Shown: one piece after another, positions 34,006-53,269 of the stretch
Numbering within the stretch: position 1 is the first letter of the stretch
Layout of the letters: each line of letters opens with the position of its first letter
Origin: Thermodesulfobacteriota bacterium
GTDB taxonomy: Bacteria; Desulfobacterota_D; UBA1144; Nemesobacterales; Nemesobacteraceae
DNA length: 64,000 nt
Direction: 5' to 3'
Assembly (NCBI GenBank): GCA_965208155.1
Contig: OZ242322.1
Location: 9,774 to 73,773, forward strand
The notes under the pieces: generated by a model
The model's database searches: none
What the model saw: only the letters and a program-made list of their open reading frames with translations
What the model was told of the DNA's origin: nothing
Translations under genes and position numbers: made by a program

Positions 34006-35671
34006 GCTTCAATGAGGCCGGGGCATTCCTACCCCGGAAAACTTCATGAATAATGACCAGACGAATTTCTCTGTCGTGTGCTTCAATGAGGCCGGGGCAT
34101 TCCTACCCCGGAAAACCTCCCGCGGCGCGATGCCGTGCGTTTATTCGATCGCGACGCTTCAATGAGGCCGGGGCATTCCTACCCCGGAAAACAGCTCCAA
34201 GAACAGCTACATACGACCTGCGGTTTAAGGCTTCAATGAGGCCGGGGCATTCCTACCCCGGAAAACTGGCGCTGCTGATGTTCAAGCAACATGTTCCTGA
34301 ATTGCTTCAATGAGGCCGGGGCATTCCTACCCCGGAAAACGCGGCTACTGAAAGACCAGTGCGAAAAAGATTTGCGTGCTTCAATGAGGCCGGGGCATTC
34401 CTACCCCGGAAAACCGCCGATTGCGCAGAGAACCCACCATCCCCAGAACGAGCTTCAATGAGGCCGGGGCATTCCTACCCCGGAAAACGTTTTCCTGGAA
34501 GATCCTTCAGCTTATTTGGAAATGCTTCAATGAGGCCGGGGCATTCCTACCCCGGAAAACCTGGTTTTACGGGAATAAGGCTTTAGTAGAATCAGTGCTT
34601 CAATGAGGCCGGGGCATTCCTACCCCGGAAAACCTTTTTTAATCGATGACAAGGCCGTATATCAACATTTGCTTCAATGAGGCCGGGGCATTCCTACCCC
34701 GGAAAACGAAGCGGATGTCTTTTTCTCCATGCTTGACCGCGAGGCTTCAATGAGGCCGGGGCATTCCTACCCCGGAAAACGTCGGGACCGACTCGCCTGA
34801 GACTCACCAGGATCGCAGCTTCAATGAGGCCGGGGCATTCCTACCCCGGAAAACCTCCCGGAGGATAGGGATACCGTCACATTCTTGAAGGCTTCAATGA
34901 GGCCGGGGCATTCCTACCCCGGAAAACCTCTGGTTCACCGCGCCGTAAGCCTGCGTCGCGGACGCGCTTCAATGAGGCCGGGGCATTCCTACCCCGGAAA
35001 ACAAGATTTGTTAGCCAAATTAGCCGTAACGACGATGGGAGCTTCAATGAGGCCGGGGCATTCCTACCCCGGAAAACTTTGTTGTCGCGGCCGTGTCGAT
35101 AAACATTTCGGATGCTTCAATGAGGCCGGGGCATTCCTACCCCGGAAAACCGTGGCCCTGAGGAACGATGGCAGCTTCTACAAGGAGCTCGCTTCAATGA
35201 GGCCGGGGCATTCCTACCCCGGAAAACAGTGAGGAGAATTATACAGACCTTCAGGTGCATTACGTGGCTTCAATGAGGCCGGGGCATTCCTACCCCGGAA
35301 AACCACTGTACCTCCGTTTTTGATTATATACTTGGCCAGGCTTCAATGAGGCCGGGGCATTCCTACCCCGGAAAACCAGAAGCAAGGGTTTCAAGATTAC
35401 GGGCGACTGGCATGCTTCAATGAGGCCGGGGCATTCCTACCCCGGAAAACTTGGGAGCCCGGCTAACAAAACCGTTCATGCGAATCGCTTCAATGAGGCC
35501 GGGGCATTCCTACCCCGGAAAACGGGGGCTGTCCAGATCGGGTCCTCGATTGTTGCGTCTGCTTCAATGAGGCCGGGGCATTCCTACCCCGGAAAACTGT
35601 CTAGAGTGAGCAGAAAGAGAGGGAGATTTTGAACGCTTCAATGAGGCCGGGGCATTCCTACCCCGGAAAAC
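34006..35671 (-). CRISPR. CRISPR array: 23 identical 37-nt repeats and 22 unique spacers (35-40 nt)
   Basis: Every repeat start was read from the sequence (34006, 34080, 34156 ... 35635). The plus-strand repeat is GCTTCAATGAGGCCGGGGCATTCCTACCCCGGAAAAC. The minus-strand form, GTTTTCCGGGGTAGGAATGCCCCGGCCTCATTGAAGC, ends in an ATTGAAGC handle. The AT-rich leader lies on the cas2 side, so transcription is inferred on the minus strand. Confidence 0.97.
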
Positions 35672-36110: not shown

Positions 36111-38242
36111 ACCTGAATTCCCAACTGCAGGAATTGACATGACACTTTGAGGGGGGTCAGAAGAACCTTATCTTGAGAACACGATTATCAAGCCAGGGGA
36201 TTCGTTCTTCCATCTCCCCATAGCCAGCAGCTATGAGCAGCGGATTGTTCGCACGGCGTCCAAGACTCACTATTATCTCATCCCCCTTTACCTCTACTTT
36301 TCCACTTGCCCTCACAAGATCCCGGAATATAGTACTCGCCTTCGCTACATCATACCCATCACCCACTCGCTTCCCCAATACCCTGTACAACCCACTGGCC
36401 ATCACCGTAAGCTGTGCGTCCACATTAACCTTCATAGCCACAGCCGCAGAAAGCGCGTCCATGTGAAAAAAGTCTATAGCGTCCGCTATCGTATTCTCTA
36501 TTATCATTCGCCTCGCGTAACGGTCTATAAGCTTCGCCGCATTCTCCTCCATCTGATTGGTCAGAAGCAGCACCGGCTTCCTGCGTCCAAGATCCTTTAT
36601 TGCTATCTGTCGTATATCCCCGGGATAATCCCTGAGCTTAACCCTCTGCTCATATATCTTAGGGGTCCTGTACTCCCTGCCCACATTGCTGAGCCTTATC
36701 TTCTTCCACTCAGAAGACGGCTTTGAAGCCAACACAGACACCATCTTCTCAGACCTTCTTCGTAATGTCAGAAACCTTATCCCCATCTCCTCAAGCCTCC
36801 CCAGATTGGCATACGTGGTAAAACCACTGTCAAACACAAGCTCCCTGGGCTTGCGCCCCGTACGCTTCTCCCACCCCTCTATGAACCGCAGTATCTCATC
36901 GCTTGCCCCCTTCTTGCGTATATCAGTGTTGGCCCAGGCAAACATCCTCGCGTCAGCATCCCTCGCTACAAACGCCAGTATCCCCTTCTGACGCCTGCTC
37001 CTCTTCGATACATAGTGGCGTTCTACCAACGCCGCGTCCCCGTGATAGGGAATAGCGTGGAAATCAAGATCAAACGATTCCTCCCCTCCAAGATTGACTC
37101 CAAGACCGCGTACCACTTTATACCACCTGTCCATAAGCCCGGGATTCATCCTCGGATCAATCCTGCATGAATACTCCGTAAGAGTGCTTCGCTTCGGTAT
37201 TACGTTAAGACCACAGAACAGCCCTAACCCCTCATCAAGAGTCTCTGCCATTATCCGTGAAGGTCTTCCTATCCCCCATAGCTTCAAAGCAAGCAGGGAA
37301 CGAAACGCGCACCCCGCCGGTATCATCCCGCTCCCAGGCATGCCGCTTCGCTCCACTATCCCGTCAATGTCTGCTCTCCCAAGATCATGGGCAAACAGAA
37401 ACAACCCAGCAAACTCGGTACGAAACGTCCGGGAACCCAGATTCAGCACCCTTCGGTCAGACGTAGCCGCTTTATGTGCCCGTACAATGTCCAGCCTCTC
37501 ATCCAGGGACCTTCGCGCAAGCTTCTGTACCCCCGCCCCTTTAAGCACACCGTGAACATAGGCCGAACTCACAGAAACACCTTCCTTCTTCAAAACATTG
37601 ATGATGTCATAGATAGAAAGACGGCCTGATTTGCGCAACTCCACTATCCTCTCCTTGCGTTTGAGGGATTCGTCTTCTTTGCGTGTGGCTTTGCGTTTGC
37701 GCGGTTTGGGCAAAAAGAAATCCGGATCATCGCTGTTCGCAAATTCCGAACAGATGTTACGGACCGTTCCATGGGAGTATCCGAAACGTATGGCCACTTC
37801 AGCTGACGACAATCCGTCTACGTGGTATGCGCGCAGGGCTTCATAACGTTTTTGTGCTGGATTTGTTGGTTCCAGGAATCTTTTTGCGTGCGGTGATGTC
37901 ATTGCAGATAGTAAATAGATAAACACACTATCACTATAGCTAATACTATATTCTGTATGTTCGTCATTGTCAAGCAATATTTGTTGGGGTTGGAGGATAA
38001 GGTGAGTTAAATGGTTTACTTGCAGTGGGTTAATCTGATATAGGGATGGCATATGAGAAGTTGGAGAGCAGTACTGCTGAATTGAGTTTTGGGTGGGTGG
38101 GTTGCTGTAAATAAGTGGTAAAGTGTTTATAAGTTAACTATAATAATGACAAATCTGCTTGACTTACTGCGAAAAAACACAGAAATACGGAATGAAACTT
38201 ATCTTGGATGTAACTTCACTCCCTATAGTTGGGAATTCAGGT
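36111..38242 (-). mobile_element. Insertion sequence (2132 bp) inside cas2; DDE transposase of uncertain family
   Basis: Perfect 16-bp terminal inverted repeats: ACCTGAATTCCCAACT (36111..36126) and its complement at 38227..38242. They are flanked by a direct TCA (36108..36110 and 38243..38245). Confidence 0.85.
36157..38052 (-). CDS. Transposase (N-terminal HTH, C-terminal DDE-type with YxxRxxxE motif)
   Basis: HTH-like AQKRYEALRAYHVDGLSSAEVAIRFGYSHGTVRNI. C-terminal DRYARRMIIEN resembles the Y-2-R-3-E signature of the IS4 superfamily. The likely real start is MTSPHAKRF at 37902. Confidence 0.7.
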   Translation of the reverse strand: MPSLYQINPLQVNHLTHLILQPQQILLDNDEHTEYSISYSDSVFIYLLSAMTSPHAKRFLEPTNPAQKRYEALRAYHVDGLSSAEVAIRFGYSHGTVRNICSEFANSDDPDFFLPKPRKRKATRKEDESLKRKERIVELRKSGRLSIYDIINVLKKEGVSVSSAYVHGVLKGAGVQKLARRSLDERLDIVRAHKAATSDRRVLNLGSRTFRTEFAGLFLFAHDLGRADIDGIVERSGMPGSGMIPAGCAFRSLLALKLWGIGRPSRIMAETLDEGLGLFCGLNVIPKRSTLTEYSCRIDPRMNPGLMDRWYKVVRGLGVNLGGEESFDLDFHAIPYHGDAALVERHYVSKRSRRQKGILAFVARDADARMFAWANTDIRKKGASDEILRFIEGWEKRTGRKPRELVFDSGFTTYANLGRLEEMGIRFLTLRRRSEKMVSVLASKPSSEWKKIRLSNVGREYRTPKIYEQRVKLRDYPGDIRQIAIKDLGRRKPVLLLTNQMEENAAKLIDRYARRMIIENTIADAIDFFHMDALSAAVAMKVNVDAQLTVMASGLYRVLGKRVGDGYDVAKASTIFRDLVRASGKVEVKGDEIIVSLGRRANNPLLIAAGYGEMEERIPWLDNRVLKIRFF

Positions 38243-38323: not shown

Positions 38324-40066
38324 TTATCTGGGTAAATAGTGTGGATAAACCGGTATCTCGCCCTGTATATATCTCGCAAGAAGCCGTGCCTGAACATTTA
38401 TCAAACGTCGCATTGAAACTTGGTAACCAAAAAGCGGGTGCGTAGTTTGCTGGTCCATTCGACGTTCGAAAACAGCAATAAATGCTTTGCGACCACTTGG
38501 CTTGAGTGCGCAAGCTGGCCCATTAAAAATAAAATCATTTGGTTTTATCTCTTTATTGTTTATTGCCTGAATTACACAAGAGTCGGCAACAATCGGACGG
38601 AAAGGCTCCATCAAATCAAGAGCCAGGGCAGGTCGGCCATAACGAGGACGATGATAAAACCCCATATATGGGTCTAACCCTGTTGCCGAGATTGATGTTG
38701 TAAGTGTCCTTGTAAGCAAGGCATAAGCGAGCGAAAGCATTGCATTTACTGGATCCGTAGGTGGACGACGATTACGCGTGGAGAAAGAAAGAGTCGGCAG
38801 GTTTTGATTTTTATGCTTGGCTATCATTTTGTCAAAATGGGAAAAATAGACCGAGGCCGCTTCACCTTCAATTCCCAGCAACTGCTGAATGTCGGCGTTA
38901 TTCATAGCTGACGCACGTCGGGCAGTGCGTTTCAACTTCGACATTATTTCATCCTTGGTTGTATAGTCTTTTTCCGTACGCCAGTTGCGCCGTAGCATAG
39001 TACGTGAGTTCTGTATCTTGGCTACCACTAAATCACGGGAAAATGCAGCACATTTGTACTTTTCGAAGGCAAAGCGGTATTGAGCTTCTCGTACGCCCAC
39101 ATTTTTGCTGCCAGTTCCCACAGTATGGCCAAGGAACCACCCTCCAGTGGAAAACCATGATACAGAAATTTCACTGTTCATAAGAGTATGTAACGCAGGA
39201 GTAGAAACCGACACGGGCCCAAACAGGACAACCTGTGAAACATCAATAATCGGAATTTCTGTAGCATTTTTTGAGGTTTTATCATCTTTTTCTTCACGGG
39301 TTTCCACTATCAACGTGTCTCCGCTTTTACGCAGTCTGGCACCGGGAGTTTGTATGTAAAGAGGTAGCGCGGGATCGTCAGACGGATTCAGGGGGCGGAC
39401 AGAGTATTTTTTCTTGAACAGGTTTGTTTCATCCGGCAGACATATACCCGCGAGTGAACAGCGCGGACATTTAGGGCTGTTTTCCAGAGGAGGTGGCCTC
39501 TGACCTGAAGATGCAGCCTCTCTCAGGCCATATATGGCACTAATGGTCTTAGCTCGCAGTTCCTCATCCAGAATGACCGGTACTTTCTCCCGGGATCCGA
39601 CATACCAGAGAGCACCTTGTGAGACTTTGTATCCGTTGTCTTCAAGGATCATCGCCTGAGTACAGACTTGAACACGTTCGGGGTCGTAAGCTCCTTTCTG
39701 AACATGGGGACGTTTGCCTTTCTTGAAATCCACCGGCATCACCATATCTCCGCTTGTTTCGACAACATCCATTTTCGCAATAATACCCAGACGTTCCGAC
39801 GACAAAGTAACAGAACGACTTTTGGACATTTCTTCACCTATATCATCTGGAGACGGAAGAGGTTCTACTTCTCTGTCAACTCGCGCATGAGCATTTTTTC
39901 CCTGAACGGTGTCTTCGCTGTCAGCCCATTCACCCTCTACCCATTCAAGATAGGCAAGTCTGGGGCAGTAAGCCCATTCATTTACCATGCGTGCCGGAAT
40001 CAGAGGAGTATCTTTATCAGCAGGCTTTGGAGGAAGGGGCAAGGGAATCTGGTTGTGTCGATTCAT
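38324..40066 (-). CDS. cas1: Cas4-Cas1 fusion protein
   Basis: The N-terminal Cas4 part has NEWAYCPRLAYLEW, the nuclease motif MDVVE...VDFKKGK, and a Cys cluster CPRCSLAGIC. The C-terminal Cas1 part has LLGIEGEAASVYF, NRRPPTDPVNAMLSLAYALL and GFYHRPRYGRPALALDLMEPFRP. Confidence 0.9.
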   Translation of the reverse strand: MNRHNQIPLPLPPKPADKDTPLIPARMVNEWAYCPRLAYLEWVEGEWADSEDTVQGKNAHARVDREVEPLPSPDDIGEEMSKSRSVTLSSERLGIIAKMDVVETSGDMVMPVDFKKGKRPHVQKGAYDPERVQVCTQAMILEDNGYKVSQGALWYVGSREKVPVILDEELRAKTISAIYGLREAASSGQRPPPLENSPKCPRCSLAGICLPDETNLFKKKYSVRPLNPSDDPALPLYIQTPGARLRKSGDTLIVETREEKDDKTSKNATEIPIIDVSQVVLFGPVSVSTPALHTLMNSEISVSWFSTGGWFLGHTVGTGSKNVGVREAQYRFAFEKYKCAAFSRDLVVAKIQNSRTMLRRNWRTEKDYTTKDEIMSKLKRTARRASAMNNADIQQLLGIEGEAASVYFSHFDKMIAKHKNQNLPTLSFSTRNRRPPTDPVNAMLSLAYALLTRTLTTSISATGLDPYMGFYHRPRYGRPALALDLMEPFRPIVADSCVIQAINNKEIKPNDFIFNGPACALKPSGRKAFIAVFERRMDQQTTHPLFGYQVSMRRLINVQARLLARYIQGEIPVYPHYLPR

Positions 40067-40129: not shown

Positions 40130-41791
40130 TTACAAATCAGCAGATAATGCACGTTCAAATAGTCCAAGACCAAAATGACATGCAAATCCAAGTGATATCG
40201 GACCAGTAATTGCCTCAGGGAAATTCAAACGCAGGAATGTTCCTTGCGTATCTGTCTGTTTTTCTCCCCGCCGAGATCGGAATCGGTGAAAATTGCTTGT
40301 GTGACGAACAGTATCACCGATAGAAATACTTTGCATGATTTCAACCTGAACGCCGTCCACAAGAGACTCGCAAATTATCTTACGTCGCTTCAAAAGCCTT
40401 TTCACTTCACCTGCGTACCCGCTGTTTTTCTTTAAATGTCCGGTTGCAAGAAATGGTGTGGAACTCACCCAAACCCGTGACATGCCGAATATTCTGGATG
40501 AATTCGAAAAGTCTTGAGGGTTTCCAAAACTCTCAAGCGCCAAGCACCACTCACAGAAACCAGAACCATTTTTATTTGCTGAACCCTGATTAGTCCATAA
40601 ACGCGTAATCCGGTCAAGTCGGCTCCTGACATCATCATCTAAGCCCTCTGGAGCATAGACTGTAATATGGTCAATACATCCGTCTCCATCTGTATCCTCA
40701 GGAAGCCAGAATGCATGCGAATGCGAAGAGTTACGCAGTGGTTTTCCATCAATATCGCGTCCTGAAATTACCGATGGCGCCTTCGGTTTCCTGTGACCAG
40801 TTGATCCAACGGTTTCCCACCCGAACTTGGATAGTGCCGCAAGACGCATGAGCTCGCCGACTTTAACCACATCCTCAATTTGTGGTAACGGCCAGCCAGC
40901 TAAAAGATAACGCGCAACCGTGTATCTGTTTTGGGTTTTGATGTTCTTGTGACAGCTAGCAGAAGACTGTCTAGCAGAAGACAAACACAACTCTCCGGGA
41001 AGAAGATATAAAACTTCTCTAGATGCCGGAGGACGGTTCCAGCCATATCTCAGATAATCGTCCGCATCCAGAGCAATCGCGTCGACAAGCAATTCCGGCA
41101 ATGTTGGCCCGAATTTCTGCTCCTGTTTTTTTTCAAGAATTTTGCCGGTTGGAGTTTTTTTTTGAGAAGCTTCCGCTTCGTCATGTAATCGTTTTTCAAA
41201 CTCTGTCATTAAACGCATGCGTTCTGCGGCATAATCGCTTTCACTACGAGGAGCAGCAACCCTTACAAAATTTCCAGTGGTTTTTTCCGTTGTTCCTGTT
41301 ACCGGATAACACATCAGGTCATTTTCTTTAGGAAACCAGTTATTCGTCGCTGTGCAGTCGGCCCAGCTTTCTGTGCGGCCCAGATATCCGATTCCCTTGG
41401 CGAGATGAGAAGCGAATTTGAAAAGATTGGAACTCAGTTCCAAACCAGGCCAGAACGCGATAAGTTTCTCGCCTTTCGGCAATTGCAGAAAGGTGTCAAA
41501 AATTAGGCTTTCCTTGTTTTTCCACAAGGGCATATAGTCGTGTGTTCGTGTATGAACAAGAGCCTTCGGTAACCGGTAGGAAGGCAAAACTTCAACAAGG
41601 ACAGAAATTAGCGCTTTAAGATCGCTTTCCTGCCACAGAGAGTTGTTTCCGTTGCATCTGTAGCTGTTGATCAATGCCCGCAAGATTCGCCATGGTTCAG
41701 GGGGCCAGGGAACTCTAACTTTATCGACATACTCTCCCCATAGTGTCGTATGGTATCTTTTTGCAGGAAATCTGAAAATTAATGCGAACAT
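40130..41791 (-). CDS. csb2: Csb2-family RAMP protein, paralog B (Cas5/Cas6-like, type I-G/I-U)
   Basis: N-terminal FPAKRYHTTLWGEYVDKVRVPWPPEPWRILRALI matches the Csb2 signature as I remember it (RYHATPWG...EWPPSPWRLLRAL). The C-terminus has a glycine-rich loop, CHFGLGLF. Confidence 0.7.
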   Translation of the reverse strand: MFALIFRFPAKRYHTTLWGEYVDKVRVPWPPEPWRILRALINSYRCNGNNSLWQESDLKALISVLVEVLPSYRLPKALVHTRTHDYMPLWKNKESLIFDTFLQLPKGEKLIAFWPGLELSSNLFKFASHLAKGIGYLGRTESWADCTATNNWFPKENDLMCYPVTGTTEKTTGNFVRVAAPRSESDYAAERMRLMTEFEKRLHDEAEASQKKTPTGKILEKKQEQKFGPTLPELLVDAIALDADDYLRYGWNRPPASREVLYLLPGELCLSSARQSSASCHKNIKTQNRYTVARYLLAGWPLPQIEDVVKVGELMRLAALSKFGWETVGSTGHRKPKAPSVISGRDIDGKPLRNSSHSHAFWLPEDTDGDGCIDHITVYAPEGLDDDVRSRLDRITRLWTNQGSANKNGSGFCEWCLALESFGNPQDFSNSSRIFGMSRVWVSSTPFLATGHLKKNSGYAGEVKRLLKRRKIICESLVDGVQVEIMQSISIGDTVRHTSNFHRFRSRRGEKQTDTQGTFLRLNFPEAITGPISLGFACHFGLGLFERALSADL

Positions 41792-42643
41792 TTATGTATT
41801 TTTCCATACCACTTCGGGAGGACCAAAAGTTCCGTAACCTCCCTGTGATGATCTTCGAATTGCTGATTTGAAGACTGTGGTTATCCCCCAAGAACTAAGC
41901 CAATTCTGAAGATTTGTTTCTCCGGGGGGGTCAAAAGATGCGTGCATCAACAAAGATTTAACGGCGTTTGGATATGCTGGTTTGCTCCACAGTGGCCAAG
42001 TGTAATAACCTTCTTTCCAATTTCCATAACATCCAAGTGTAAGAGTTCGATTCCGACCTGCGAATACCTGATACAAGGTCAACCCAAGTATTGCCAAAGC
42101 CTCCGGCCCTGGATTTGTCAACTTTTTTTCTCCTGCTGGGTTGTTTGCAGTTAACGCGTATACTCGGTCATCGCTAACATCCCACATAAAAGAAGGTAAT
42201 TTGCTTGTGTAAGTCCATGGACCCTCAAGACCTTCTATCAGATCAGAGCGGGTTACATGTCTTAGGATTTTCCGTGCCATATCCAAGAACTTTTGTTGTC
42301 CAGCCGTAAAGTATAAGTCTGATGGCTTGGCCACCTGAGAGTTATCTAAGCTACCTTCCGCTACAAGAGCACTGATTAGATAACTGCTAGGGTCGCTTTC
42401 ATTGACGTGAGATAGATATATACGAATGTCTTTTGAGGAAAGCTTAAGCTCGTCAACTTTGGCCAGAACAGTTCCATCAGGGCATTTTGGGTTTAGAGCC
42501 GGACTAGACTCCCACGAGGCAAAAGCTTTTAACGCTTGATCGACTATTCGGTCAACAGAGAAGTTTTTGTCAACAACCGCATGAGGAGTGGTCCCCCTAG
42601 TCCACCAGAGCATAGGCTGCTCAGATTTTGAGGCGAAGATCAC
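41792..42643 (-). CDS. Short Cas8-like (possible Csb3/Cas8g2-type) protein; annotated start is provisional
   Basis: It occupies the large-subunit slot between cas3 and csb2. The frame is open upstream to 42751 and encodes LEGLDGTNPLGFLAALGIQ before the first canonical start (GTG 42643). See the finding on this gene. Confidence 0.45.
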   Translation of the reverse strand: MIFASKSEQPMLWWTRGTTPHAVVDKNFSVDRIVDQALKAFASWESSPALNPKCPDGTVLAKVDELKLSSKDIRIYLSHVNESDPSSYLISALVAEGSLDNSQVAKPSDLYFTAGQQKFLDMARKILRHVTRSDLIEGLEGPWTYTSKLPSFMWDVSDDRVYALTANNPAGEKKLTNPGPEALAILGLTLYQVFAGRNRTLTLGCYGNWKEGYYTWPLWSKPAYPNAVKSLLMHASFDPPGETNLQNWLSSWGITTVFKSAIRRSSQGGYGTFGPPEVVWKNT

Positions 42644-42717: not shown

Positions 42718-45516
42718 TTATTGAAGTTCCTCCTGTGCGCTCTGCTGATGATCAGCAAGACGTAGAATAGTCTCTAACCATGCCACCCCGTAATATCCAT
42801 ATCTTTCTATAAGACGCCAGAAACAATCGGCCATGTCGAGAGCTAATGAACTTTCAACGAAATCAGAACTCACTTCACTCAAAACATATCCATCAATTGT
42901 GTATGAAAGCTTCTGTGGTTCGCAATCCTTAATAATTGGAAGAAGAGGGCGACCCCAGCCGTGATGCGTTCCTATTAGATGTAAAACTAGGTCGGGGTCA
43001 TTCGCTCTTGCAAGAACGTCAGAATTTGATTTAACCATAGCTAAACTCGCTATTTCATGTCGCATTCCTTTCGGATATGTACTAACTCTGGATATGCCAG
43101 GCAGAGATTTAGCTAGAGGATGGTCAAGCATTTCCAAATTCACCGGATCACCACCCACTAATTGATTCTGGAATCGACGATCCACTTTTCCTATGTCGTG
43201 CAGCTGACCAGCTAGATACAGATCTTCAACAATTTCAGCACTACAACCCAATCTCTGAGCAATTTGCATTGCTCGCTTTCCCACATTGCAAAGATGGTCT
43301 TTCAACAGTACACCAGTTCCCGTAAACGCTCCAGATTCGTCAGAACCATCCATAGTTTCTGTCTCTATCAAAAGAGTTCGTTTTGTGAGTCTCTTTTCAC
43401 TTAAAACGTAGTAGCAGGAAGCTTCGTTTTTATTGCCAATACCGACTTGAGTAATTTCAAAGCCATTATTCATCAATTTGCTTGCGGCTTGAGCTACCCA
43501 AGCTTCCGTATCTTCAGGTGCTTCAAGTAGCTCATTAAGTAATTCGGTGATCTTATCCCGTACGTAATAATCCTCAATTAAGATACTTTGGGGATTTGGC
43601 ATGTGTATCAAGTTGGGAAATAGGCGGGAGTCAAGTCGCAAGGTTGCCCTTCTACCATGTTCAAGCTGCGCTACGTCGCCCAAATCAGCAATTGGTTCAA
43701 CTGAAGACGGGTCCCAAGTTCCGCCGCCTAGTCCACCACGGTCCGGTTTCAGAATTAGTATGTCGCCTGGATGAATTTGCTCAATGCGAATCTGTTTGGG
43801 TTCTTCAGCAAACCCTTCCCACCGTACACAACCTTCTATGATATCTGATCCCATCTGATCTGGACTGTTTTTATCTTCTGCAAATGAGTCAACATCCGCT
43901 ACATCTACCTCCAATCCATTTTTCAGCCATGATTTTGCGACATTAATAGGAATCTGTAGAAACTCAGCATTTCTGGGAGGAACAAGAGAAAGTGTTTCTG
44001 AAGACATGTCCCAGCGCCACAAAATATAGACATCTGCATCATGTTTGATATTTATACCGTGAAGAAACCATTCTAAAGGAGGTTGTACAGGTGGTTCAGG
44101 ATTCGTTTGAACCCATGCATCCATGTGCGATCTTAAGAGCAATGGTGCTGAAATTCTTGGTGCTACTGCCTTCTCTGGAAAATTTTGGAGAGACAGTGGT
44201 CCAACATCAATTTCCTTTTGATTGTCCAGCAGAAATTTTAACCTTTCCCATGTTGCCTTAACCGAGTTGCCGTAAATTGGATCGGGCTTTTTGGATTCCA
44301 CAACCGATCTGGGACCAATAATCCAAGCTCGGGCCGGTATTCCTGTTCTGGCAAAGTTCGTGCCTCGTCTATCAAGGCGTCCAAACCTTTGTCGAAGACT
44401 GTCAACTGGTGCACACTCAGTAATTAGAGCGTCAAAACTGAAATCTGCCCCAACCTCAATAGATTGTGTTGCCACTAAGATGGTGAGAGAATCTTCACGT
44501 TCTTCAGCATCAGGATCAATTTTTGTAGAAACACTATTCAGAATCCCAAGACGATCTAGAGGCCTCATACGTCCCGTCAGCATAAAGGGACGAAATCCCG
44601 CTTCCTTAAGCACTCTGTGTGTTTCTCTGGCAGTCCGCACCCTATTAACTATAATCCCTATGGAACGAACATTTCTATCTTTGCTAACCTTGTCTATAGA
44701 CTTGATCTTTTTCAAAGCAGCAGAGGGTATAGAGTCAGAATTTCGAACAGTAATTAGCTCAGCCTTTTTAACCGCATATACGCGTCGGCGCAACTCGTTA
44801 CATTTTTTTAGGTCGGAAGTTTCATCTAAAGTGAATCTATCTGTATTGCTATTGCTGGGAGTAGCGGACATCTCAACTACACTAAACCGTCGTGGTAAAA
44901 ATCTTGGCTTTAGCTTTGACACATTGTCTAAAGTCTCTGCAAATGGAGAGCTAAGATGCACTTCGTCTAGAATAACAAGGCAGTCATTTCCTGCGAGACC
45001 GGCGTGAACAGGGCGCATATTATGTGTCACTCCATAACCCCGAAATAGCAGACGCGAACCGAATTGATCAACTGTGGAAACTATAATCCATGGTTTATCT
45101 GGACTACTTGCCCACTCATTATCAACAGGAATTCCTCCTCTTAACGCAGTGATCCCTAGAGATTCTCCGTCGCTTAGTTTTTTTAATTGTTCTCGGACAT
45201 TTTTTAGAACTAAAGTGTCTGCTGATTCAATCCGTTCTTTAATGCTTTCCGCTCGTTCGTAAACTTGGTCTACGACTATTCGACGATCAATAACAAAAAC
45301 AACTCGACGAGGACACAAATCTGGCCGGATAGCCATTGTAAAAATCGCAGTGTCGAGTACTGCGGTTTTTCCGGTTCCTGTAGGCAAATCAAGAACACGA
45401 GGCCAAGAACAGGATTTTTTGTTAAGTACTTGTTCTGTCAAACGTTTTTGCCATGGAAAGGGTTCGTATCCGTGGACATCTTGAAAAAAGGCTGTAAAAT
45501 CATCGGGCTTCAACAT
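42718..45516 (-). CDS. cas3: Cas3 helicase-nuclease, type I-G/I-U architecture (helicase N-terminal, HD C-terminal)
   Basis: Motifs PFPWQKRL...LDLPTGTGKTAV (Walker A), ILDEVH (DEAH-like), and helicase C (TQSIEVGADFSFD). The HD domain near the C-terminus has LAGQLHDIGKVDRRFQ and LIGTHHGWGRP. Confidence 0.9.
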   Translation of the reverse strand: MLKPDDFTAFFQDVHGYEPFPWQKRLTEQVLNKKSCSWPRVLDLPTGTGKTAVLDTAIFTMAIRPDLCPRRVVFVIDRRIVVDQVYERAESIKERIESADTLVLKNVREQLKKLSDGESLGITALRGGIPVDNEWASSPDKPWIIVSTVDQFGSRLLFRGYGVTHNMRPVHAGLAGNDCLVILDEVHLSSPFAETLDNVSKLKPRFLPRRFSVVEMSATPSNSNTDRFTLDETSDLKKCNELRRRVYAVKKAELITVRNSDSIPSAALKKIKSIDKVSKDRNVRSIGIIVNRVRTARETHRVLKEAGFRPFMLTGRMRPLDRLGILNSVSTKIDPDAEEREDSLTILVATQSIEVGADFSFDALITECAPVDSLRQRFGRLDRRGTNFARTGIPARAWIIGPRSVVESKKPDPIYGNSVKATWERLKFLLDNQKEIDVGPLSLQNFPEKAVAPRISAPLLLRSHMDAWVQTNPEPPVQPPLEWFLHGINIKHDADVYILWRWDMSSETLSLVPPRNAEFLQIPINVAKSWLKNGLEVDVADVDSFAEDKNSPDQMGSDIIEGCVRWEGFAEEPKQIRIEQIHPGDILILKPDRGGLGGGTWDPSSVEPIADLGDVAQLEHGRRATLRLDSRLFPNLIHMPNPQSILIEDYYVRDKITELLNELLEAPEDTEAWVAQAASKLMNNGFEITQVGIGNKNEASCYYVLSEKRLTKRTLLIETETMDGSDESGAFTGTGVLLKDHLCNVGKRAMQIAQRLGCSAEIVEDLYLAGQLHDIGKVDRRFQNQLVGGDPVNLEMLDHPLAKSLPGISRVSTYPKGMRHEIASLAMVKSNSDVLARANDPDLVLHLIGTHHGWGRPLLPIIKDCEPQKLSYTIDGYVLSEVSSDFVESSLALDMADCFWRLIERYGYYGVAWLETILRLADHQQSAQEELQ

Positions 45517-45524
45517 TGCTCTTA

Positions 45525-47534
45525 CTCTAGCGGGAGTTTACCGCCTTCACGCTTGATTTTGCCATAACTAACAAGCCCCTGCCAACTTCAGCAAGTCATA
45601 ACCCCCTGTTTTCATTCAAATCCTGACACTTTTTATCTGTGGGGACATCTCTGTTTTGCGTAAAACTTGTATGACCTAACTACCCGAGGCTACATTAAAG
45701 CCTTTTTATCAATATGTTGACCTGCTCACCACTTGACACCACTATATACATGCTGTATAGTATGCCCTAACATGGCAAGCATTACTAAAAAAATTATCCG
45801 CGGCAAACCCTACTACTACGCAAGAGAATCCGCCAGAATTAACGGCAAACCCAAAATCGTCTGGCAAAAATACCTGGGCAAAGCCGACGACATCATATCC
45901 GGACTCTCAAAACCACCCCTCCCAAAGCAGGTTAATGTCAGGGACTTCGGCGCGGTTGTCGCCCTGCTCGACATTGCACGCAAACTCAGACTCTGTGATC
46001 ATATAGACTACCATGTTCCAAAACGAACCTCTCCCTCCGTGGGAACCTATCTGCTTGCCTCCATCATTAACCGCTGCGTAGCTCCGAGTTCCAAAGCCGC
46101 TACCGCGCGGTGGTTTGCAAATACCGTGCTTGAGCAATTCATCGACATTGAACCCCGACAGCTCACAAGCCAGCGTTTCTGGGACAATATGGACCGCGTA
46201 TCCCCTGAAGCTATTTCCTCAATTGAGCGTGATGTTGTCTCGGAGATGGTAAAGCTTTTTGATGTAGACCTCTCCCAGGTGCTGTTTGACGCAACCAATT
46301 TCTTCACCTTCATAAACAGCTTTAACGATCGCTGTACTCTGGCCCAGCGGGGACACAGCAAGGAAGGACGCAAGTCTCTGCGCATTGTAGGACTTGCTCT
46401 GCTGGTAAGCGCTGACGGACCACTTCCTCTTCTGCATAACACCTATCCCGGAAACCAGACGGACGCTCCCATGTTTCGAGGAGTTGCGGATTCTCTGGTA
46501 CAGCGTTACCAGGAGATTGCGCAAGAGACAGAAGATGTGACGATAGTATTTGACAAGGGTAACAATGCCCGCGACAACCTTGAGGCCGTAAACAAGAGTC
46601 CTTACCACGTAATTGGTTCTCTGGTGCCCACGCATTACCCGGAACTGCTTGCTGTTCCCGAGAGTAAGCTTGCAGAAATCAAAGGCATTGACGGAGTCAA
46701 GGCATGGCGTAGCAGGCATGATGTGCTGGGAGTGGAGCAGACTGTGCTCGTTACCTGGAACAAGAAGCTGTATGACTCGCAGGTAAAGACCCTTTTGCGT
46801 GAGATAGTCAAACGGCGCAAGTTGTTGAGAGAACTTGGCAATCGCCTGCGCAGATGGCGTTCGGGACAGATCACAGCGGGGCGTCGGCCAACTGTCGCTG
46901 GTACAAAGAAAAAAGTTGAGAAATGGCTCAAGGCTCGTCACATGAAAGATCTGTTCCGGGTTGATATTACGGAGACTGACGGATTCACCACACTTCACTA
47001 CAGGTTCAACAAGTCCGAATGGGAGCGTCTGCAGTCAACTCTTCTGGGGAAGACCTTGATCTTTACTGACAATCATCACTGGAGTGATGAGGAGATTGTA
47101 CGAGGTTACAGGGCTCAATATCACGTTGAGAGCGCATTCAGGGAGATGAAGAATGTTCATCATATAGCGCTTCGTCCTCAATATCATTGGACTGACCAGA
47201 AGATCAGGGTTCATATTTTGTGCTGTGTACTCGCTTTCATGCTGTGCAGTCTTCTGAGGCGGGAGGTCAGTCGCCACGGGCTGGAGATGTCAACTCATGA
47301 GATACTTGAGCAGCTTGGCTGTATTCGGGAGGTTGTGTTGTTTTATCCGCCTTCAAAGTGGTGTAAGGAGCCTCAGCTGCATAAAACGCATACGCAGATG
47401 AATCAATCTCAGCAGGCACTCTACGATGCTCTTGATCTGGGAAAATACATGGCCTCGTAGGTCATACGGAATCCAGCCATTTACAAAGTGAAATCAGCCA
47501 GTTAGAAAATTAATGCGGTAAACTCCCGCTAGAG
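45525..47534 (+). mobile_element. IS1634/IS4-like insertion sequence (2010 bp) between csb2 and cas3
   Basis: Perfect 20-bp terminal inverted repeats: CTCTAGCGGGAGTTTACCGC (45525..45544) and its complement at 47515..47534. There is a subterminal inverted pair: GTATGACCTA..CGAGGC at 45669..45690 and its complement at 47452..47467. The target duplication is not clearly resolved. Confidence 0.85.
45733..47460 (+). CDS. IS1634-family (IS4 superfamily) transposase
   Basis: N-terminal ITKKIIRGKPYYYARESARINGKPKIVWQKYLGK is typical of IS1634-type transposases. DDE region VFDKGNN ... YRAQYHVESAFREMK. The probable start is MASITKK at 45772, preceded by TTGACA-17 nt-TATAGT. Confidence 0.85.
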   Translation: MTPLYTCCIVCPNMASITKKIIRGKPYYYARESARINGKPKIVWQKYLGKADDIISGLSKPPLPKQVNVRDFGAVVALLDIARKLRLCDHIDYHVPKRTSPSVGTYLLASIINRCVAPSSKAATARWFANTVLEQFIDIEPRQLTSQRFWDNMDRVSPEAISSIERDVVSEMVKLFDVDLSQVLFDATNFFTFINSFNDRCTLAQRGHSKEGRKSLRIVGLALLVSADGPLPLLHNTYPGNQTDAPMFRGVADSLVQRYQEIAQETEDVTIVFDKGNNARDNLEAVNKSPYHVIGSLVPTHYPELLAVPESKLAEIKGIDGVKAWRSRHDVLGVEQTVLVTWNKKLYDSQVKTLLREIVKRRKLLRELGNRLRRWRSGQITAGRRPTVAGTKKKVEKWLKARHMKDLFRVDITETDGFTTLHYRFNKSEWERLQSTLLGKTLIFTDNHHWSDEEIVRGYRAQYHVESAFREMKNVHHIALRPQYHWTDQKIRVHILCCVLAFMLCSLLRREVSRHGLEMSTHEILEQLGCIREVVLFYPPSKWCKEPQLHKTHTQMNQSQQALYDALDLGKYMAS

Positions 47535-47567
47535 GTCTTCTATTGTCTAATTATAATGCCACTACTT

Positions 47568-49280
47568 TTAATGATCTGAAGGAAGGTTGTCTAAACCTGC
47601 AACTGGTCGCATCAAACCCAATCCGCGAAACCTGCCGGATCCGATTATCAATGGTCCACCAACTAAGTCTTTGAATGTCAGAAACACATGCGCAAGCTGG
47701 CGAGATAGGTTTTTGCCATTTCTATCTCTCTGGTTGAATGTTGGATAGTTTCTTGCTGGTTTACCGCCCATTAGAAATGGGTTCAAGGAAACCTCTACAG
47801 ATAAAGGTTCTGGAAGTCCAACATGACTACACGCATCCCGTACAGCGAATTCGGCATTTTTCCAAGCCTTGGCACGAACCGAACTAGTACCCTTGGAAAG
47901 CGGACCGGGGTGCAGGGGAAGAGCAACTGGTGTAGCAGATGCCCAATAGCGGGACGCATTTCCCCAGATAGAAGGTCGCAGTGAGACTAAAGAGGTAGGG
48001 CCAAGTAGTCGATACATGGTTACTATATACTTAGCTTTAGCTCCTAGGATGAGACTTAGAAACGTGCTGGGTTGTCTGTTCCTTGCATACCGAGAACTTA
48101 AAGCTTTGTTCTCCCATGTTCCGATAGCACGCAGCAAAATTCGCCGTGAAGATTCATCCAGTACATTTGGCAAGGAAACCGCAACTCCCAAGATGCGTCC
48201 GTCAGAATGCTCAAAGCCTATGTAAGGTAGAGGAAGGAAAGACACATGTGGTATTGTCGTAGGACTTCCGTCTATTCTGTATCCACTGATTTCTTCGGGG
48301 ATGGGTTTTTCCGCATAACCAAGAACCGTTGTATACATTGCTGTGGCTAATTCTACTATCCTTGTCGGAGGAAAAGTGCGTGATTCATGCGAAAACTCAA
48401 AGACAATCCACTCACCTGCCGTGTTCGGCATTTGTGTGGATTCCGAGGAAGTAGTATCGCGCACAGTCTGATAACGAACATCAACATAAGGGAGAAACCG
48501 AGGTTTGATTCCTCTATGAAGAGCATGTTTCTTCTCGAGATCTTTTAGTTGTCCAGATCCAAAGGAACGCATACTATCCCCCTCATTACTTGGTATATGG
48601 TTTGGTTTAGTAGGAGTCTCGGTTACTATTCTGCAAGAGACTAAAGAAGAGGAGTGCCCAAGCCTCGTAACTCGTTTGAGCAAGCAGTCAAGTGTTTGCA
48701 AAACACCCTCCTGTGGTTTAGCTTCCCATATATAAGTAACGCGTGGTTCATCTGGAGTAGTTGACGGAAAAAACCGCTCTTGTCTACCTCTATGCTCAGG
48801 AAACATATCAAGCGCAGACGATGGGTTGGTATTGCCTATTTTCAGGACATATTCTTCTACCTTTCTAAGCTTGGTTATTTTGCGTTGGGTGCGAGCAACT
48901 TTTTCTGTAATTTCACCACCGGATATAGAAAGTTCCTTTTCCAATTCATTCATTAGCTCATAGAGTTTGTTGGCTCTCTGCTCACTCCATTTTTTAGGTA
49001 TAATCGAAGAATCATTAACAGGTACAAAGTAGGACACTGGTGTACGTGGAATAGCACCGGAAGCAGCAATTTTAGGAGGAGACAATGTTTCAAGCCACTC
49101 TAAGGCGGTCCTTTCCGATATATCAGATTCGTCGACATCTGTCCACGTTGCTACCATTGCAGAGAATAAACGTGCGGGGTGAGGTGGCCACTCGGGCCGC
49201 TTGCGATTGTTATGCGAAGAAGATACGCAACGACCCGTCAGGAAGTTGACTTCAATACCGAATTCATCATGATTTATCAT
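47568..49280 (-). CDS. csb2: Csb2-family RAMP protein, paralog A (Cas5/Cas6-like, type I-G/I-U)
   Basis: N-terminal VNFLTGRCVSSSHNNRKRPEWPPHPARLFSAMVATW and C-terminal glycine-rich loop IIGSGRFRGLGLMRP. It follows csb1 with a 15-nt gap. Confidence 0.7.
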   Translation of the reverse strand: MINHDEFGIEVNFLTGRCVSSSHNNRKRPEWPPHPARLFSAMVATWTDVDESDISERTALEWLETLSPPKIAASGAIPRTPVSYFVPVNDSSIIPKKWSEQRANKLYELMNELEKELSISGGEITEKVARTQRKITKLRKVEEYVLKIGNTNPSSALDMFPEHRGRQERFFPSTTPDEPRVTYIWEAKPQEGVLQTLDCLLKRVTRLGHSSSLVSCRIVTETPTKPNHIPSNEGDSMRSFGSGQLKDLEKKHALHRGIKPRFLPYVDVRYQTVRDTTSSESTQMPNTAGEWIVFEFSHESRTFPPTRIVELATAMYTTVLGYAEKPIPEEISGYRIDGSPTTIPHVSFLPLPYIGFEHSDGRILGVAVSLPNVLDESSRRILLRAIGTWENKALSSRYARNRQPSTFLSLILGAKAKYIVTMYRLLGPTSLVSLRPSIWGNASRYWASATPVALPLHPGPLSKGTSSVRAKAWKNAEFAVRDACSHVGLPEPLSVEVSLNPFLMGGKPARNYPTFNQRDRNGKNLSRQLAHVFLTFKDLVGGPLIIGSGRFRGLGLMRPVAGLDNLPSDH

Positions 49281-49295
49281 TGTTTAATTAGCAGA

Positions 49296-50549
49296 TTATT
49301 TTTCGACAGTCTCGGCAGAAACACTGTGACTCCGTCGAATCAGTTCAATGAGTTTTGGTGCTGGGAGAAAGCGAATTTCCTCAGTTTCCCAGCCTATTTC
49401 CGCCTCTACAGAATTTGACGCGGCATCTTTAAGGAGTTGAGCTGCCGAAGCTCGGTCTATGTCTATGACTTGTCCAGCTGACCCGTCTCTACCTAACATC
49501 TCCACTCGTAACGGATGTTCTGGGATCAAGAGACAACGAGATCTTAAATCAAAATCCAATTCGTGCTGATATGCAATAGCCGCAATACCTAATGCCGCAA
49601 GAGCAGTGCGCGCAGCTATTTCGGCATTGCGATTAAAACCTCGGAAACGAAGACGGCGTAATGCCGCAAGAGAAATTACAGTTGTCTGAAGGGCTTTAGA
49701 GATAGTAACGCCTCCAGCAAGAGAATCAATTGAAGGGGGAATATTCCCATGGTTGATCTTAGAAGGTTGCCCAGCTTCCCCGCTTGCTCCTCCACGCGAG
49801 GCTAGTACAGGTTGCCCTTTAGCGTCTAGCTCAGCAGATTCAGGGTCATGTGTCCAAACTTCTGAGCGATCTCTGCTGTTAAACACGCGGTTTTCGGTGG
49901 AAACTTTCTCAATTTGTAGTGGGTCAATGCGGCTACCCACTTTTTTTCCAATGGATACATCAAAACCTATAATTTCAGATACATAAGCTCTTTGAAACCT
50001 AGACCCTAGACCTCCCTTGGGACCAGTAGAATCCCACATGCCGAAAAGAAGTGATGTAGGTGAATAGCGGAAAAGTGCAGTGGCGTTAAGTGGTGTCGCA
50101 TCAGTAATAGAACGTCCAATTTCAGACAGTCGAAACAAGGTTCCATTAAGAAGGCTGTCGCGGAAAATAGCATCCGCTAACCGATGCGGTGTTTCAAGCA
50201 CCGTAAGTTTTTCATAATCTGTTATGGAAGTAGTTCCGGTAAAATCCACAAACGGAACAGGAAAAACTAACTCACCACTTTCCCAACCTTCGAGCAACGC
50301 CAATTCTGCCCGATTTGCCTGAGATGCAACAGAGTCCAATAAAACGGTAGTTGATATTTTGTCACTGACACCTATCTGGCGGTCTTCAATAGCGTATTTG
50401 TGCTGTGCATTTCCTTCTACTGCATACGAAGGTGGAAAAATTTTATCTCCTTTGCCACCAGCAGGTTGTAGGGTTAGCTGAGACCGAATAGCTACTGCGT
50501 TACCTGCGACTGCAGATTCGAGTTTTTCAAGTGTAATAGTATCGGACAT
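49296..50549 (-). CDS. csb1: Csb1/Cas7-like backbone subunit (type I-G/I-U)
   Basis: 417 aa and first gene of the operon. N-terminal LQPAGGKGDKIFPPSY resembles the Csb1 family start. The assignment rests mostly on size, position next to csb2, and memory of the family. Strong SD (AAGGGGGA). Confidence 0.55.
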   Translation of the reverse strand: MSDTITLEKLESAVAGNAVAIRSQLTLQPAGGKGDKIFPPSYAVEGNAQHKYAIEDRQIGVSDKISTTVLLDSVASQANRAELALLEGWESGELVFPVPFVDFTGTTSITDYEKLTVLETPHRLADAIFRDSLLNGTLFRLSEIGRSITDATPLNATALFRYSPTSLLFGMWDSTGPKGGLGSRFQRAYVSEIIGFDVSIGKKVGSRIDPLQIEKVSTENRVFNSRDRSEVWTHDPESAELDAKGQPVLASRGGASGEAGQPSKINHGNIPPSIDSLAGGVTISKALQTTVISLAALRRLRFRGFNRNAEIAARTALAALGIAAIAYQHELDFDLRSRCLLIPEHPLRVEMLGRDGSAGQVIDIDRASAAQLLKDAASNSVEAEIGWETEEIRFLPAPKLIELIRRSHSVSAETVEK

Positions 50550-50639
50550 TTATTATTTCCCCCTTATTTGAAATTTGATACATAACATGGAGATGATGAA
50601 AGCATAATAGTTATAACCTGAATATTAAAAGCAAAATTC

Positions 50640-50748
50640 TTTACAATGAGGCCGAGGCAAGGACACCTCGGAAATTTTTACTGGAATCTAGAAAGAATCT
50701 ACTCATAAACTCTCTTCAATAAGGCCAAGGAAATTTGCCTTGGAAATA
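50640..50748 (-). CRISPR. Degenerate mini-array: repeat-like (50713..50748), 36-nt pseudo-spacer (50677..50712), repeat-like (50640..50676)
   Basis: 50640..50676 is 25/37 identical to the array repeat with no indel. 50713..50748 keeps the flanks and a 6-bp stem with a loop 1 nt shorter. Stems are CCGAGG/CCTCGG and CCAAGG/CCTTGG vs CCGGGG/CCCCGG in the array. Same orientation as the array and the cas genes. Confidence 0.7.
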
Positions 50749-50989
50749 GTTTTCGATCAACTAATGTTTGCTTGTTTGCTGACTTTTATTCCTACATCTT
50801 TGATTTCATTTTCCCTTTCAAAGACAACACAATTTCCAGCTTTCGAATAGAACAATAGACGCTAGAACTAAATCTGAAAGACAATTTTGGGATGTTTCTA
50901 ACAACTTGTGTTAGTGTCTTCAATTTAGCCCTTAGCTCCTTAAACTGGAATTATATGTATAGAGTTAAATTTTCCTAATCTGCTGATTA

Positions 50990-51017
50990 ACTCTAAATGT
51001 TTTAAAATTAATGTCAA
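50990..51017 (-). promoter_or_regulatory. Putative sigma70-type promoter reading toward the mini-array and csb1
   Basis: On the minus strand: TTGACA (51017..51012), 16 nt, TAGAGT (50995..50990). A second candidate is TTAGGA (50978..50973), 17 nt, TATAAT (50955..50950). Sequence inspection only. Confidence 0.4.
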
Positions 51018-51259
51018 GCGAAACCAAAAAAATTGTTTTTTCACTTTGCACTGGTTTGCCAATTGAATCTCTTAAGGTACCGTTTCTCATAATGAGCAAG
51101 GTAGAGAAAACTATCTGTGATTTTTCTGGAATTCGACGTTATGTATTGGGCAAAGACAATGAGAGCACGATCATTTCTGCAGTCGGTGTTCTTCCTCATC
51201 TCTAGATATTTCCGACTCGTGCATTCCATATTGGCCACAATTGGAATTAAAGTTGAATC

Positions 51260-52357: not shown

Positions 52358-52360
52358 AAA

Positions 52361-53014: not shown

Positions 53015-53269
53015 TAATTTTTCTTGGTCGAGAGGCAGGCAGCAGTTCTTCTGAAAGTGTTTCCAGTTATAAGGGAGCCGTTTGCCGGATTCCTGACGGA
53101 ACAGGCAAAAACAAGATTCTTCGACCTGCCACTTGCCAATCGTACTTGTTCCAAGCCCTGAACCGGTTTGATGCGACTGGTGGCTATGGAGCACTCAAAC
53201 AATTTTTGACAGAAAACGGAACTGCTAGAGACAAGACCAGGTGCATTTAGCCGAAGAGCACAGATCGAA

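Follow-up and report, generated by a model that had tools for sequence, protein, structure and literature searches.

A probable CreR-type mini-CRISPR upstream of csb1 in a type I-G CRISPR-Cas locus

What is the role of a pair of degenerate repeats, set as if around a single spacer, immediately upstream of the effector genes of a type I-G CRISPR-Cas locus? The question is raised by a 64,000-nt stretch of DNA from a Thermodesulfobacteriota bacterium (contig OZ242322.1, positions 9,774 to 73,773), referred to here as the window, in which all coordinates are given and where features of the locus lie on the minus strand unless stated otherwise. In this window, two diverged copies of the array repeat and a 36-nt segment between them form a mini-array on the same strand as the cas genes, 90 nt before the csb1 start and 15 kb away from the genuine CRISPR array. 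We consider it probable, with good confidence, that the element is a CreR-type mini-CRISPR that regulates the cas genes of its own type I-G system. The analysis establishes its anatomy, the statistics of its match to a site at a csb1-facing promoter, and the conservation and covariation of the arrangement across related loci. A CreR/CreA-like reading had been proposed in a first-pass annotation of this DNA, and is supported by stem covariation and by conserved pairing between pseudo-spacer and promoter in 17 further loci.

The mini-array is best understood by comparison with the repeat from which it differs. The CRISPR array (34006..35671, transcribed on the minus strand) contains 23 identical 37-nt repeats that read GTTTTCCGGGGTAGGAATGCCCCGGCCTCATTGAAGC on the transcribed strand. 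Each consists of a 6-8-bp hairpin, then the 4-nt linker CCTC, and then ATTGAAGC, an anatomy that fits the cleavage geometry published for Csb2, which in type I-G systems cuts 4 nt 3' of the hairpin base to leave an 8-nt 5' handle (PMC9638904). In the mini-array, the upstream degenerate repeat, psiR1 (TATTTCCAAGGCAAATTTCCTTGGCCTTATTGAAGA; 50713..50748), is identical to the array repeat at about 24/36 positions, has a loop that is 1 nt shorter, and carries a CCAAGG/CCTTGG hairpin, CCTT as its 4-nt linker, and ATTGAAGA as its 8-nt 5' handle, compared with ATTGAAGC in the repeat. It is followed by the 36-nt pseudo-spacer, psiS (GAGTTTATGAGTAGATTCTTTCTAGATTCCAGTAAA; 50677..50712), positions 1-17 of which are the proposed functional seed. 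The downstream degenerate repeat, psiR2 (AATTTCCGAGGTGTCCTTGCCTCGGCCTCATTGTAAA; 50640..50676), matches the array repeat at 25/37 positions with no indel; its hairpin CCGAGG/CCTCGG is intact and is predicted to serve as the 3' handle, where Csb2 would bind, while decay of the tail has left ATTGTAAA at the 3' end. This geometry, and the retention in psiR1 of the position of the 8-nt handle, agree on re-check with every sequence statement made about them in the first-pass annotation.

Divergence from the array repeat is unevenly distributed. Within the stem, the pair G8-C23 has become A-U in psiR1, and the pair G9-C22 has become A-U in both psiR1 and psiR2. All 18 stem cells across the repeat, psiR1, and psiR2 are paired, with two pairs changed on both sides, as expected from the earlier description of these changes as hairpin-preserving; the window-only covariation comes from three sequences and is modest and suggestive only, being equalled in 46/500 shuffles. 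Both psiR hairpins are present in the minimum-free-energy structure, and psiR2 folded alone has a z-score of -4.0. By comparison, the loop has drifted, as have the final eight nt of psiR2. Kept despite this decay are TTTCC, pairing within the stem, the linker CCT(C/T), and the handle of psiR1. When the repeat, psiR1, and psiR2 are combined in a covariance model, it matches psiR1 with 46.1 bits and psiR2 with 49.3 bits, and detects no further unit in the window apart from the array. A search of Rfam gave CRISPR-DR16 on psiR2 only, below threshold (18.6 bits vs a gathering score of 35). The element is not a canonical adaptive array, its repeats having diverged and its ‘spacer’ matching a promoter of the locus itself.

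A simpler origin might be proposed for such a structure, as the decayed end of an array or a duplicated repeat pair, without function and with a promoter match that is coincidental. The repeats are ~30% diverged, two insertion sequence (IS) elements lie within the locus, and some mini-arrays, those of type III systems, have been judged to be degraded junk (PMC10120712). The pattern of decay argues against this origin, because hairpin pairing, linker, and handle are kept while the loop and the tail of psiR2 decay. Further evidence on this point comes from the target of the pseudo-spacer and from related loci.

Upstream of csb1 is an AT-rich intergenic spacer of 710 nt (34% GC), and it is here that the pseudo-spacer finds its match. 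The predicted target, or protospacer, reads GAGTTAATCAGCAGATT on the non-target strand (50977..50993, minus) and lies 281 nt upstream of psiS on the same strand. It is identical to psiS 1-17 at 14/17 positions, with mismatches at 6, 9, and 12, equivalent to 14 of the 15 positions expected to pair, and there is no complementarity between psiS and target after position 17. The flanking TTA (50994..50996, minus) fits 5'-TTN, the protospacer-adjacent motif (PAM) reported for type I-G systems (PMC9638904). The extent of the match, its mismatches, its flank, and its end after position 17 are all as first claimed. The seeds of three leader-proximal genuine spacers gave no match in IMG/VR, and the PAM of this particular system was not derivable in this way.

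The position of this target relative to predicted promoters suggests what its recognition might achieve. Promoter P1 (TTGACA-16 nt-TAGAGT; 50990..51017, minus) matches the consensus at 10/12 positions and faces the mini-array and csb1. No other sigma-70-like site occurs on the minus strand in 50450-51350, and no other of at least 9/12 within 1300 nt before csb1. The -10 element of P1 overlaps the PAM and the positions matching psiS 1-4. A possible second promoter, P2 (TTAGGA-17 nt-TATAAT; 50950..50978, minus), was read directly from the sequence and has a weak -35 element that starts at protospacer position 16. Two promoters directed towards csb1 had been annotated at first; P1 is the only one that stands as a sigma-70-like match, and P2 is present but falls under the scanner threshold. 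A scan of the minus strand between P1 and csb1 revealed no terminator-like site. Since the target precedes psiS on this strand, transcription of leader, guide, and csb1-csb2 would all start from one promoter.

The significance of the match was assessed with a post hoc, type-I-aware score that counts 15 pairing positions and skips every sixth. The shuffle control suggested alongside the first-pass annotation was passed when this score was applied over 1331 nt on both strands, with 3/20,000 shuffled pseudo-spacers equal to the observed value; other shuffles in which every sixth position was skipped gave from 14/2000 down to 0/2000. No other seed match of psiS is as good as the target anywhere in the 64-kb window, on either strand; the next-best matches reach 12/15 and are without a TTN flank. 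For comparison, the 22 genuine spacers score only 9-12 of 15 against the same 1331-nt region. That this site is the best in 64 kb is a further point against a coincidental match of functionless repeats.

These observations also bear on whether the guide might have a different main target. The 710-nt region is common to csb1 and to a divergent defence operon, and short seeds could match elsewhere in a genome, a caveat also raised for other mini-arrays (PMC10120712). The guide might then act chiefly on the divergent PDC-M38-like defence genes, which start at 51260, or at some distant site, as a trans regulator similar to scaRNA. The target, however, lies 267 nt from the divergent start codon and overlaps a promoter that faces csb1, and no other TTN-flanked match of at least 12/15 is found in the 64-kb window. 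In addition, the genes that form the upstream neighbour vary among relatives of the locus, while the target is always upstream of csb1. With these findings from the 64-kb window and the related loci, a main target other than the cas operon seems very unlikely.

Are these features particular to one genome, or are they maintained wherever the system occurs? Relatives of Csb1 were collected as 80 loci from GTDB genomes (60-75% identity, mostly metagenome-assembled genomes (MAGs) of sponge symbionts from many phyla) and 80 loci from metagenomes (40-73% identity), numbered here with the prefix L. A first search used the 13-nt repeat tail GGCCTCATTGAAG alone with up to 2 mismatches, and identified solitary or paired matches 150-700 nt upstream of csb1 in ~10 loci. 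Each of these contains a degenerate psiR1 ending in CCYC-ATTGAAGN, a pseudo-spacer of ~36 nt, and a GC-rich hairpin 5-6 nt further on. A second scan was blind to the handle and looked for a hairpin at the right distance together with a nearby match of at least 12-13 of 15, with the PAM imposed in one run and left free in another. In its top non-palindromic matches, ATTGAAGN (or ATTGCGGC, GTTGAAGC, or TTTGAAGC) appears exactly at positions -8 to -1, and new members were recovered from loci down to 42% Csb1 identity (L143). Together, a pair of psiS and target was defined in 18 loci, the window and 17 relatives with a psiR1-psiS-psiR2 module. The asymmetry of the window, with the psiR1 handle kept and the psiR2 tail decayed, recurs in the 19 mini-arrays that were extracted. 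A search of the GTDB representative genomes with the mini-array pattern gave no match, near-identical relatives were not found, and public assemblies have no record of this exact Csb1 sequence.

Two side observations came from this sampling. Csb1 proteins of 60-75% identity (L001-L080, e.g. L079) occur in MAGs of more than 10 phyla, with many sponge symbionts among them (such as Poriferisodalis, Spongiisociaceae, and Rariloculaceae) and one Nitrosopumilaceae archaeon, a spread that points to horizontal transfer of the I-G variant within one habitat. In L044, for which the scans gave no mini-array, several copies of the motif AACGTTTAACC and of its palindromic version lie ~500-950 nt before csb1; these repeats may be a protein-operator answer to the same regulatory problem.

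Alignment of each pseudo-spacer with its own target produces a strikingly regular profile. Over the 18 loci, matches at positions 1 to 5 number 18, 15, 13, 18, and 18, and then fall to 5 at position 6; those at positions 7 to 11 number 18, 16, 10, 18, and 18, falling to 4 at position 12; and those at positions 13 to 17 number 18, 17, 17, 18, and 15. Beyond these, counts drop to 6, 8, and 2 at positions 18, 19, and 20, and positions 21-36 are near chance (as evaluated in a 12-locus set). Positions 6, 12, and 18 are near random, and the profile is the 5+1 periodicity of type I R-loops. Three 5-nt segments (1-5, 7-11, and 13-17) are under selection, with every sixth position free and a sharp stop after position 17. 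Within the segments, the weakest of the positions expected to pair are 9 (10/18), 3 (13/18), and 2 (15/18), all others being matched in 15-18 of 18. The bases at position 9 vary in both partners and yet mismatch, which indicates that this is not one inherited mismatch.

By eye, the pseudo-spacers are unrelated across most loci (for example, ATAGAGAGTTTTG, ATTGGCAGGTTGC, CTGGCTGCTAGCT, TTGACTTCTTTCG, and GAGTTTATGAGTA); those of L022, L025, L084, and L089 are visibly alike. Because sequences are unrelated between loci while each target tracks its own psiS, the pairing is kept by covariation. When pseudo-spacers were shuffled for the window and for 11 of the relatives, the observed match was equalled in 0 to 200 of 20,000 trials. 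The PAM is TTN (TTA, TTC, TTT, or TTG) in 17/18 loci, a trend that was already visible in the PAM-free scan. The hairpins show a similar picture: for the repeat and psiR hairpins of 18 sequences, 95.7% of cells are paired and 7/8 pairs have changed on both sides, with 0/500 shuffles equalling this covariation and slid controls being at most 60% paired. The recurrence of both the selective decay and the seed and PAM relationship in 17 loci of mostly unrelated sequence contradicts the idea of functionless remnants, to which we give hardly any credence; given the differences among their psiS sequences, these loci are not recent duplicates of a single sequence.

Promoters and gene layout are also comparable between loci. 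In the window, L009, L027, L036, and L037, a csb1-facing promoter of at least 10/12 consensus positions has the end of its -10 element within ~26 nt of the protospacer start. As judged by eye, the target in the group L022, L025, L033, and L051 lies directly upstream of a promoter-like pair, and the layout of P2 in the window resembles the promoters seen in L033 and L051. The mini-array is divergent from csb1 in 16/18 loci, and in most of those the target is between mini-array and csb1; the window and L104 are the only loci with a co-oriented mini-array, ~45-90 nt before csb1. The placement within the operon leader that had been claimed for the window is therefore correct for this locus, where the module is co-oriented, but atypical of the family. 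In the sense of its protospacer relative to csb1, the window agrees with the common divergent class.

Individual relatives differ in what lies between target and csb1. In L027, mini-array and target (1227-1372) are 2.6 kb upstream of csb1 with an open reading frame (ORF) of 455 aa between them and the operon, and the regulator has probably been separated from it by an insertion. In L009, an ORF of 63 aa (-291 to -100 from csb1) has the look of a winged helix by eye, and in L078 an ORF of 149 aa (-484 to -35 from csb1) has an NYN/LabA-like N-terminus, also by eye.

At the sequence level, the element displays each of the features of a CreR RNA gene: a degenerate unit apart from the array, a handle in psiR1, a hairpin in psiR2, a partial and PAM-flanked match, and a target at a predicted cas promoter. 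A mechanism can be suggested that connects them. P1, and perhaps P2, would transcribe a leader containing psiR1-psiS-psiR2 and read on into csb1-csb2. Csb2 would then cut 4 nt 3' of each hairpin, yielding an RNA resembling a CRISPR RNA (crRNA) in which the ATTGAAGA handle is followed by the 36-nt psiS and then by the psiR2 hairpin, on which Csb2 would stay after processing; it is the geometry of hairpin, 4 nt, and 8-nt handle, as for published Csb2 cleavage (PMC9638904), that provides the sole support for this processing step. Csb1, Csb2, and the large subunit would load this psi-crRNA, and the complex would read the TTA PAM (50996-50994) and pair with 50993-50977 in segments 1-5, 7-11, and 13-17 only. 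The target so bound would cover the -10 element and start region of P1 and also the possible -35 element of P2. With pairing ending at position 17, the R-loop would be incomplete, such that RNA polymerase would be blocked and Cas3 would not be licensed. That a partial R-loop fails to recruit Cas3 is taken from general knowledge of type I systems and from the tested precedents (10.1101/2023.03.10.532045; PMC10120712) rather than from I-G data. Both the Cascade genes and the guide itself would then be under negative feedback, which, by analogy with tested CreR systems, should ease once Cas proteins are taken up by genuine crRNAs or by anti-CRISPRs.

A more elaborate proposal can be made only tentatively, and we regard it as possible rather than likely. 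A single transcript might be both guide and Cas mRNA, such that a Csb2 cut at psiR2 would free the guide and trim the csb1 leader, coupling supply, maturation, and promoter occupancy in cis; at the same time, the three-segment pairing over 17 nt might be a selected threshold to ‘bind but do not license Cas3’, in which mismatches at positions 9 and 3 tune affinity.

The transcript expected from the targeted promoter raises the alternative of an addiction module. Between target and mini-array is a leader of ~230 nt (50750..50976, minus) that contains a 43-codon ORF beginning with TTG (50792-50923) and an AAGGAG motif. In a module similar to CreTA, the RNA from the mini-array would be a CreA antitoxin that silences a toxin within this leader (the 43-codon ORF or a small RNA), and loss of Cascade would kill the cell. 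The targeted promoter does transcribe these ~230 nt first if it is active, and relatives have 100-570 nt between target and csb1, some with small ORFs. The architectures of CreA and CreR are identical, and CreA also represses a cas promoter (10.1101/2023.03.10.532045). On the other hand, the start codon TTG is accompanied by a badly spaced ribosome-binding site, the ORF has no counterpart in relatives, and in other loci the ORFs that lie between target and csb1 show no visible likeness to one another (judged by eye, without alignment). No CreT-type motif of tandem rare codons was noted. A BLAST search with the 710-nt intergenic region gave chance-level matches only, both with the array leader and with all fetched loci (best E = 0.19), so there is no evidence for a duplicated leader or a conserved leader element. 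We consider an addiction module to be unlikely, and prefer CreR-type repression of the cas genes.

The wider locus provides the context for this repression. Its assignment to type I-G follows from NCBIfam matches to Csb1, Csb2, Cas3g, the Cas3-extension family, and Cas4g/Cas1g. The interference operon csb1-csb2-cas3 begins with csb1 (cas7g; 49296..50549; NCBIfam TIGR02570), followed by csb2, encoding a Cas5-Cas6 fusion (47568..49280; TIGR02165, E = 4.8e-84), and cas3g (42718..45516). Further downstream are the gene for a 283-aa protein (41792..42643), named ‘Cas3-extension’ by NCBIfam and Cas8g by PADLOC, a second Csb2 paralogue (40130..41791; PADLOC Cas5-6g), and cas4/cas1 (38324..40066). Wherever these genes fall inside the fetched relative loci, the order csb1-csb2-cas3 is found with csb1 at the start of the operon; the Geobacter-type gene order differs from this. 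The IS1634-family transposase gene (45733..47460, plus strand) occupies the gap between csb2 and cas3 (45517-47567), and a second transposase gene of 631 aa (36157..38052; weak IS1380 and IS481 matches) separates the adaptation genes from the array at its leader end. Beyond the 710-nt spacer, a defence-type ATPase gene that starts at 51260 is divergent from csb1. It opens a defence island (51260-56605) with a PDC-M38A/AbiLi-like ATPase (E = 2e-80) and PDC-M38B (E = 4e-37), and continues with a DpdE/ZorD-like SNF2 helicase of 1111 aa (E = 4e-184).

Several points weigh against the interpretation as a CreR-type regulator. We infer transcription, processing, binding, repression, and the absence of cleavage from the patterns described above. 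The promoters are predictions from the sigma-70 consensus. The 15-position score was chosen after the window had been seen, and a naive prefix-anchored score for the window alone gives p ~0.03-0.055, a value that also favours a coincidental match. Only ~18/160 fetched loci have the module under strict criteria, and no available relative exceeds 75% Csb1 identity (the best from metagenomes is 73%). As the co-oriented layout is shared with L104 only, evidence on layout from the family transfers imperfectly to the window. Furthermore, csb2 and cas3 are only 50-110 nt apart in relatives, in comparison with the IS1634-family element found between them here; this element splits the interference operon, and cas3 and later genes would need another promoter. 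The locus split in this way may be partly disabled, and the mini-array may possibly be a relic in this genome; the circuit may now be limited to csb1-csb2, or decay of the system may be under way. Against long disuse of the system stand the 23 identical repeats of the array.

Some additional features of the intergenic region are recorded here for completeness. Extra degenerate units were considered at ATTGAAGA (50924-50917) and ATTGTTCT (50856-50849), ~68 nt apart, and rejected, since neither has a hairpin or a match to the covariance model. In the first of these regions, GGCTAAATTGAAGA (50917-50930, minus) contains an additional copy of the 8-nt handle in a context similar to a repeat tail, 204 nt upstream of the psiR1 handle; it is without a hairpin at spacer distance downstream and without a covariance-model match, and may be the trace of an older unit. 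When the psiR hairpins (50652-50671 and 50725-50743) are read on the plus strand, T-rich runs follow each and they score as intrinsic terminators, which could stop antisense transcription from the csb1 side. The 3' end of psiS does recur nearby, as had been pointed out, in the form of ATTCCAGTTTA at 50951-50941. The motif ATTCCAG (minus) occurs three times in the 710-nt region (50681-50687, 50945-50951, and 51126-51132), with one copy inside the part of psiS that stays unpaired at its 3' side and another directly behind the TATAAT of P2, and 12 times in 64 kb on both strands; it may be a protein-binding motif, or chance.

The wider significance of the element is that, on comparative evidence from 18 loci across many phyla, type I-G, the least studied of the type I subtypes, would join those with RNA-guided self-repression of their cas genes. 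It offers a PAM, a candidate 17-nt rule in three segments for binding without cutting, and natural pairs of guide and target, which could be used in the design of I-G CRISPR interference (CRISPRi). It also accounts for a feature to which annotation pipelines would give the label of a tiny CRISPR array, or none at all. To a specialist the principle will be unsurprising; it is the breadth and cleanness of the comparative signal that make I-G autoregulation, and the threshold between binding and cleavage, testable.

How does the element compare with known systems? CreR RNAs that repress cas promoters have been tested in types I-B, I-E, and V-A, and elements similar to creA were found by hand for I-D, I-C, I-E, I-F, and I-U (Figure S7) in the same study (10.1101/2023.03.10.532045). 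Regulatory mini-arrays are widespread, and one of type I-F1 has been tested; the survey that reported this lists 235 I-G loci, 4% of them with a mini-array, in its Table 1 and has no I-G description, its detailed subtypes being I-B, I-D, I-E, I-F1, and V-A (PMC10120712). No treatment of I-G autoregulation was found in the literature searched. Given the earlier counts of I-G mini-arrays and the mention of creA-like elements for I-U, this kind of element is not new. It is a well-supported addition to the CreR-type mini-arrays, in which a known circuit would operate in a subtype for which it has not been described in detail; the strict three-segment 17-nt rule and the leader-embedded layout may be new details.

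The closest resemblance is to CreR (10.1101/2023.03.10.532045), which is likewise a degenerate mini-CRISPR beside a cas operon in which the 8-nt handle of psiR1 and the 3' hairpin of psiR2 are kept, and in which psiS matches, only PAM-proximally, a PAM-flanked site at the promoter of effector genes with no obvious toxin partner. Differences are that the subtype in the window is I-G, in its csb1-first variant, and that pairing covers 17 nt in three 5-nt segments, whereas the Salmonella I-E example has 15 consecutive nt. Unlike CreR, the predicted RNA gene is co-oriented inside the leader of the operon that it would repress. The regulatory mini-arrays (PMC10120712) similarly have two repeat-like units around a spacer that partly matches a cas promoter, with a canonical PAM and mismatches at every sixth position. 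In the published description of those, degradation affects the downstream repeat and the upstream one is well preserved, whereas in the I-G loci studied here the downstream hairpin is better kept in most cases.

Other natural guides share parts of this design. CreA of the haloarchaeal I-B CreTA module has the same RNA architecture and uses limited seed pairing for Cascade-dependent occlusion of a promoter, as predicted here, but it guards the creT toxin gene, while the I-G loci yielded no conserved candidate for a toxin between target and csb1. In class 2 systems, tracr-L of Streptococcus pyogenes (II-A) and scaRNA of Francisella (II-B) are natural guides of short complementarity that make a nuclease into a repressor, as would happen here, and tracr-L represses its own cas operon. 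Those guides operate with Cas9 and tracrRNA, without a repeat-spacer-repeat unit and without Cascade, in contrast to the mini-array upstream of csb1.

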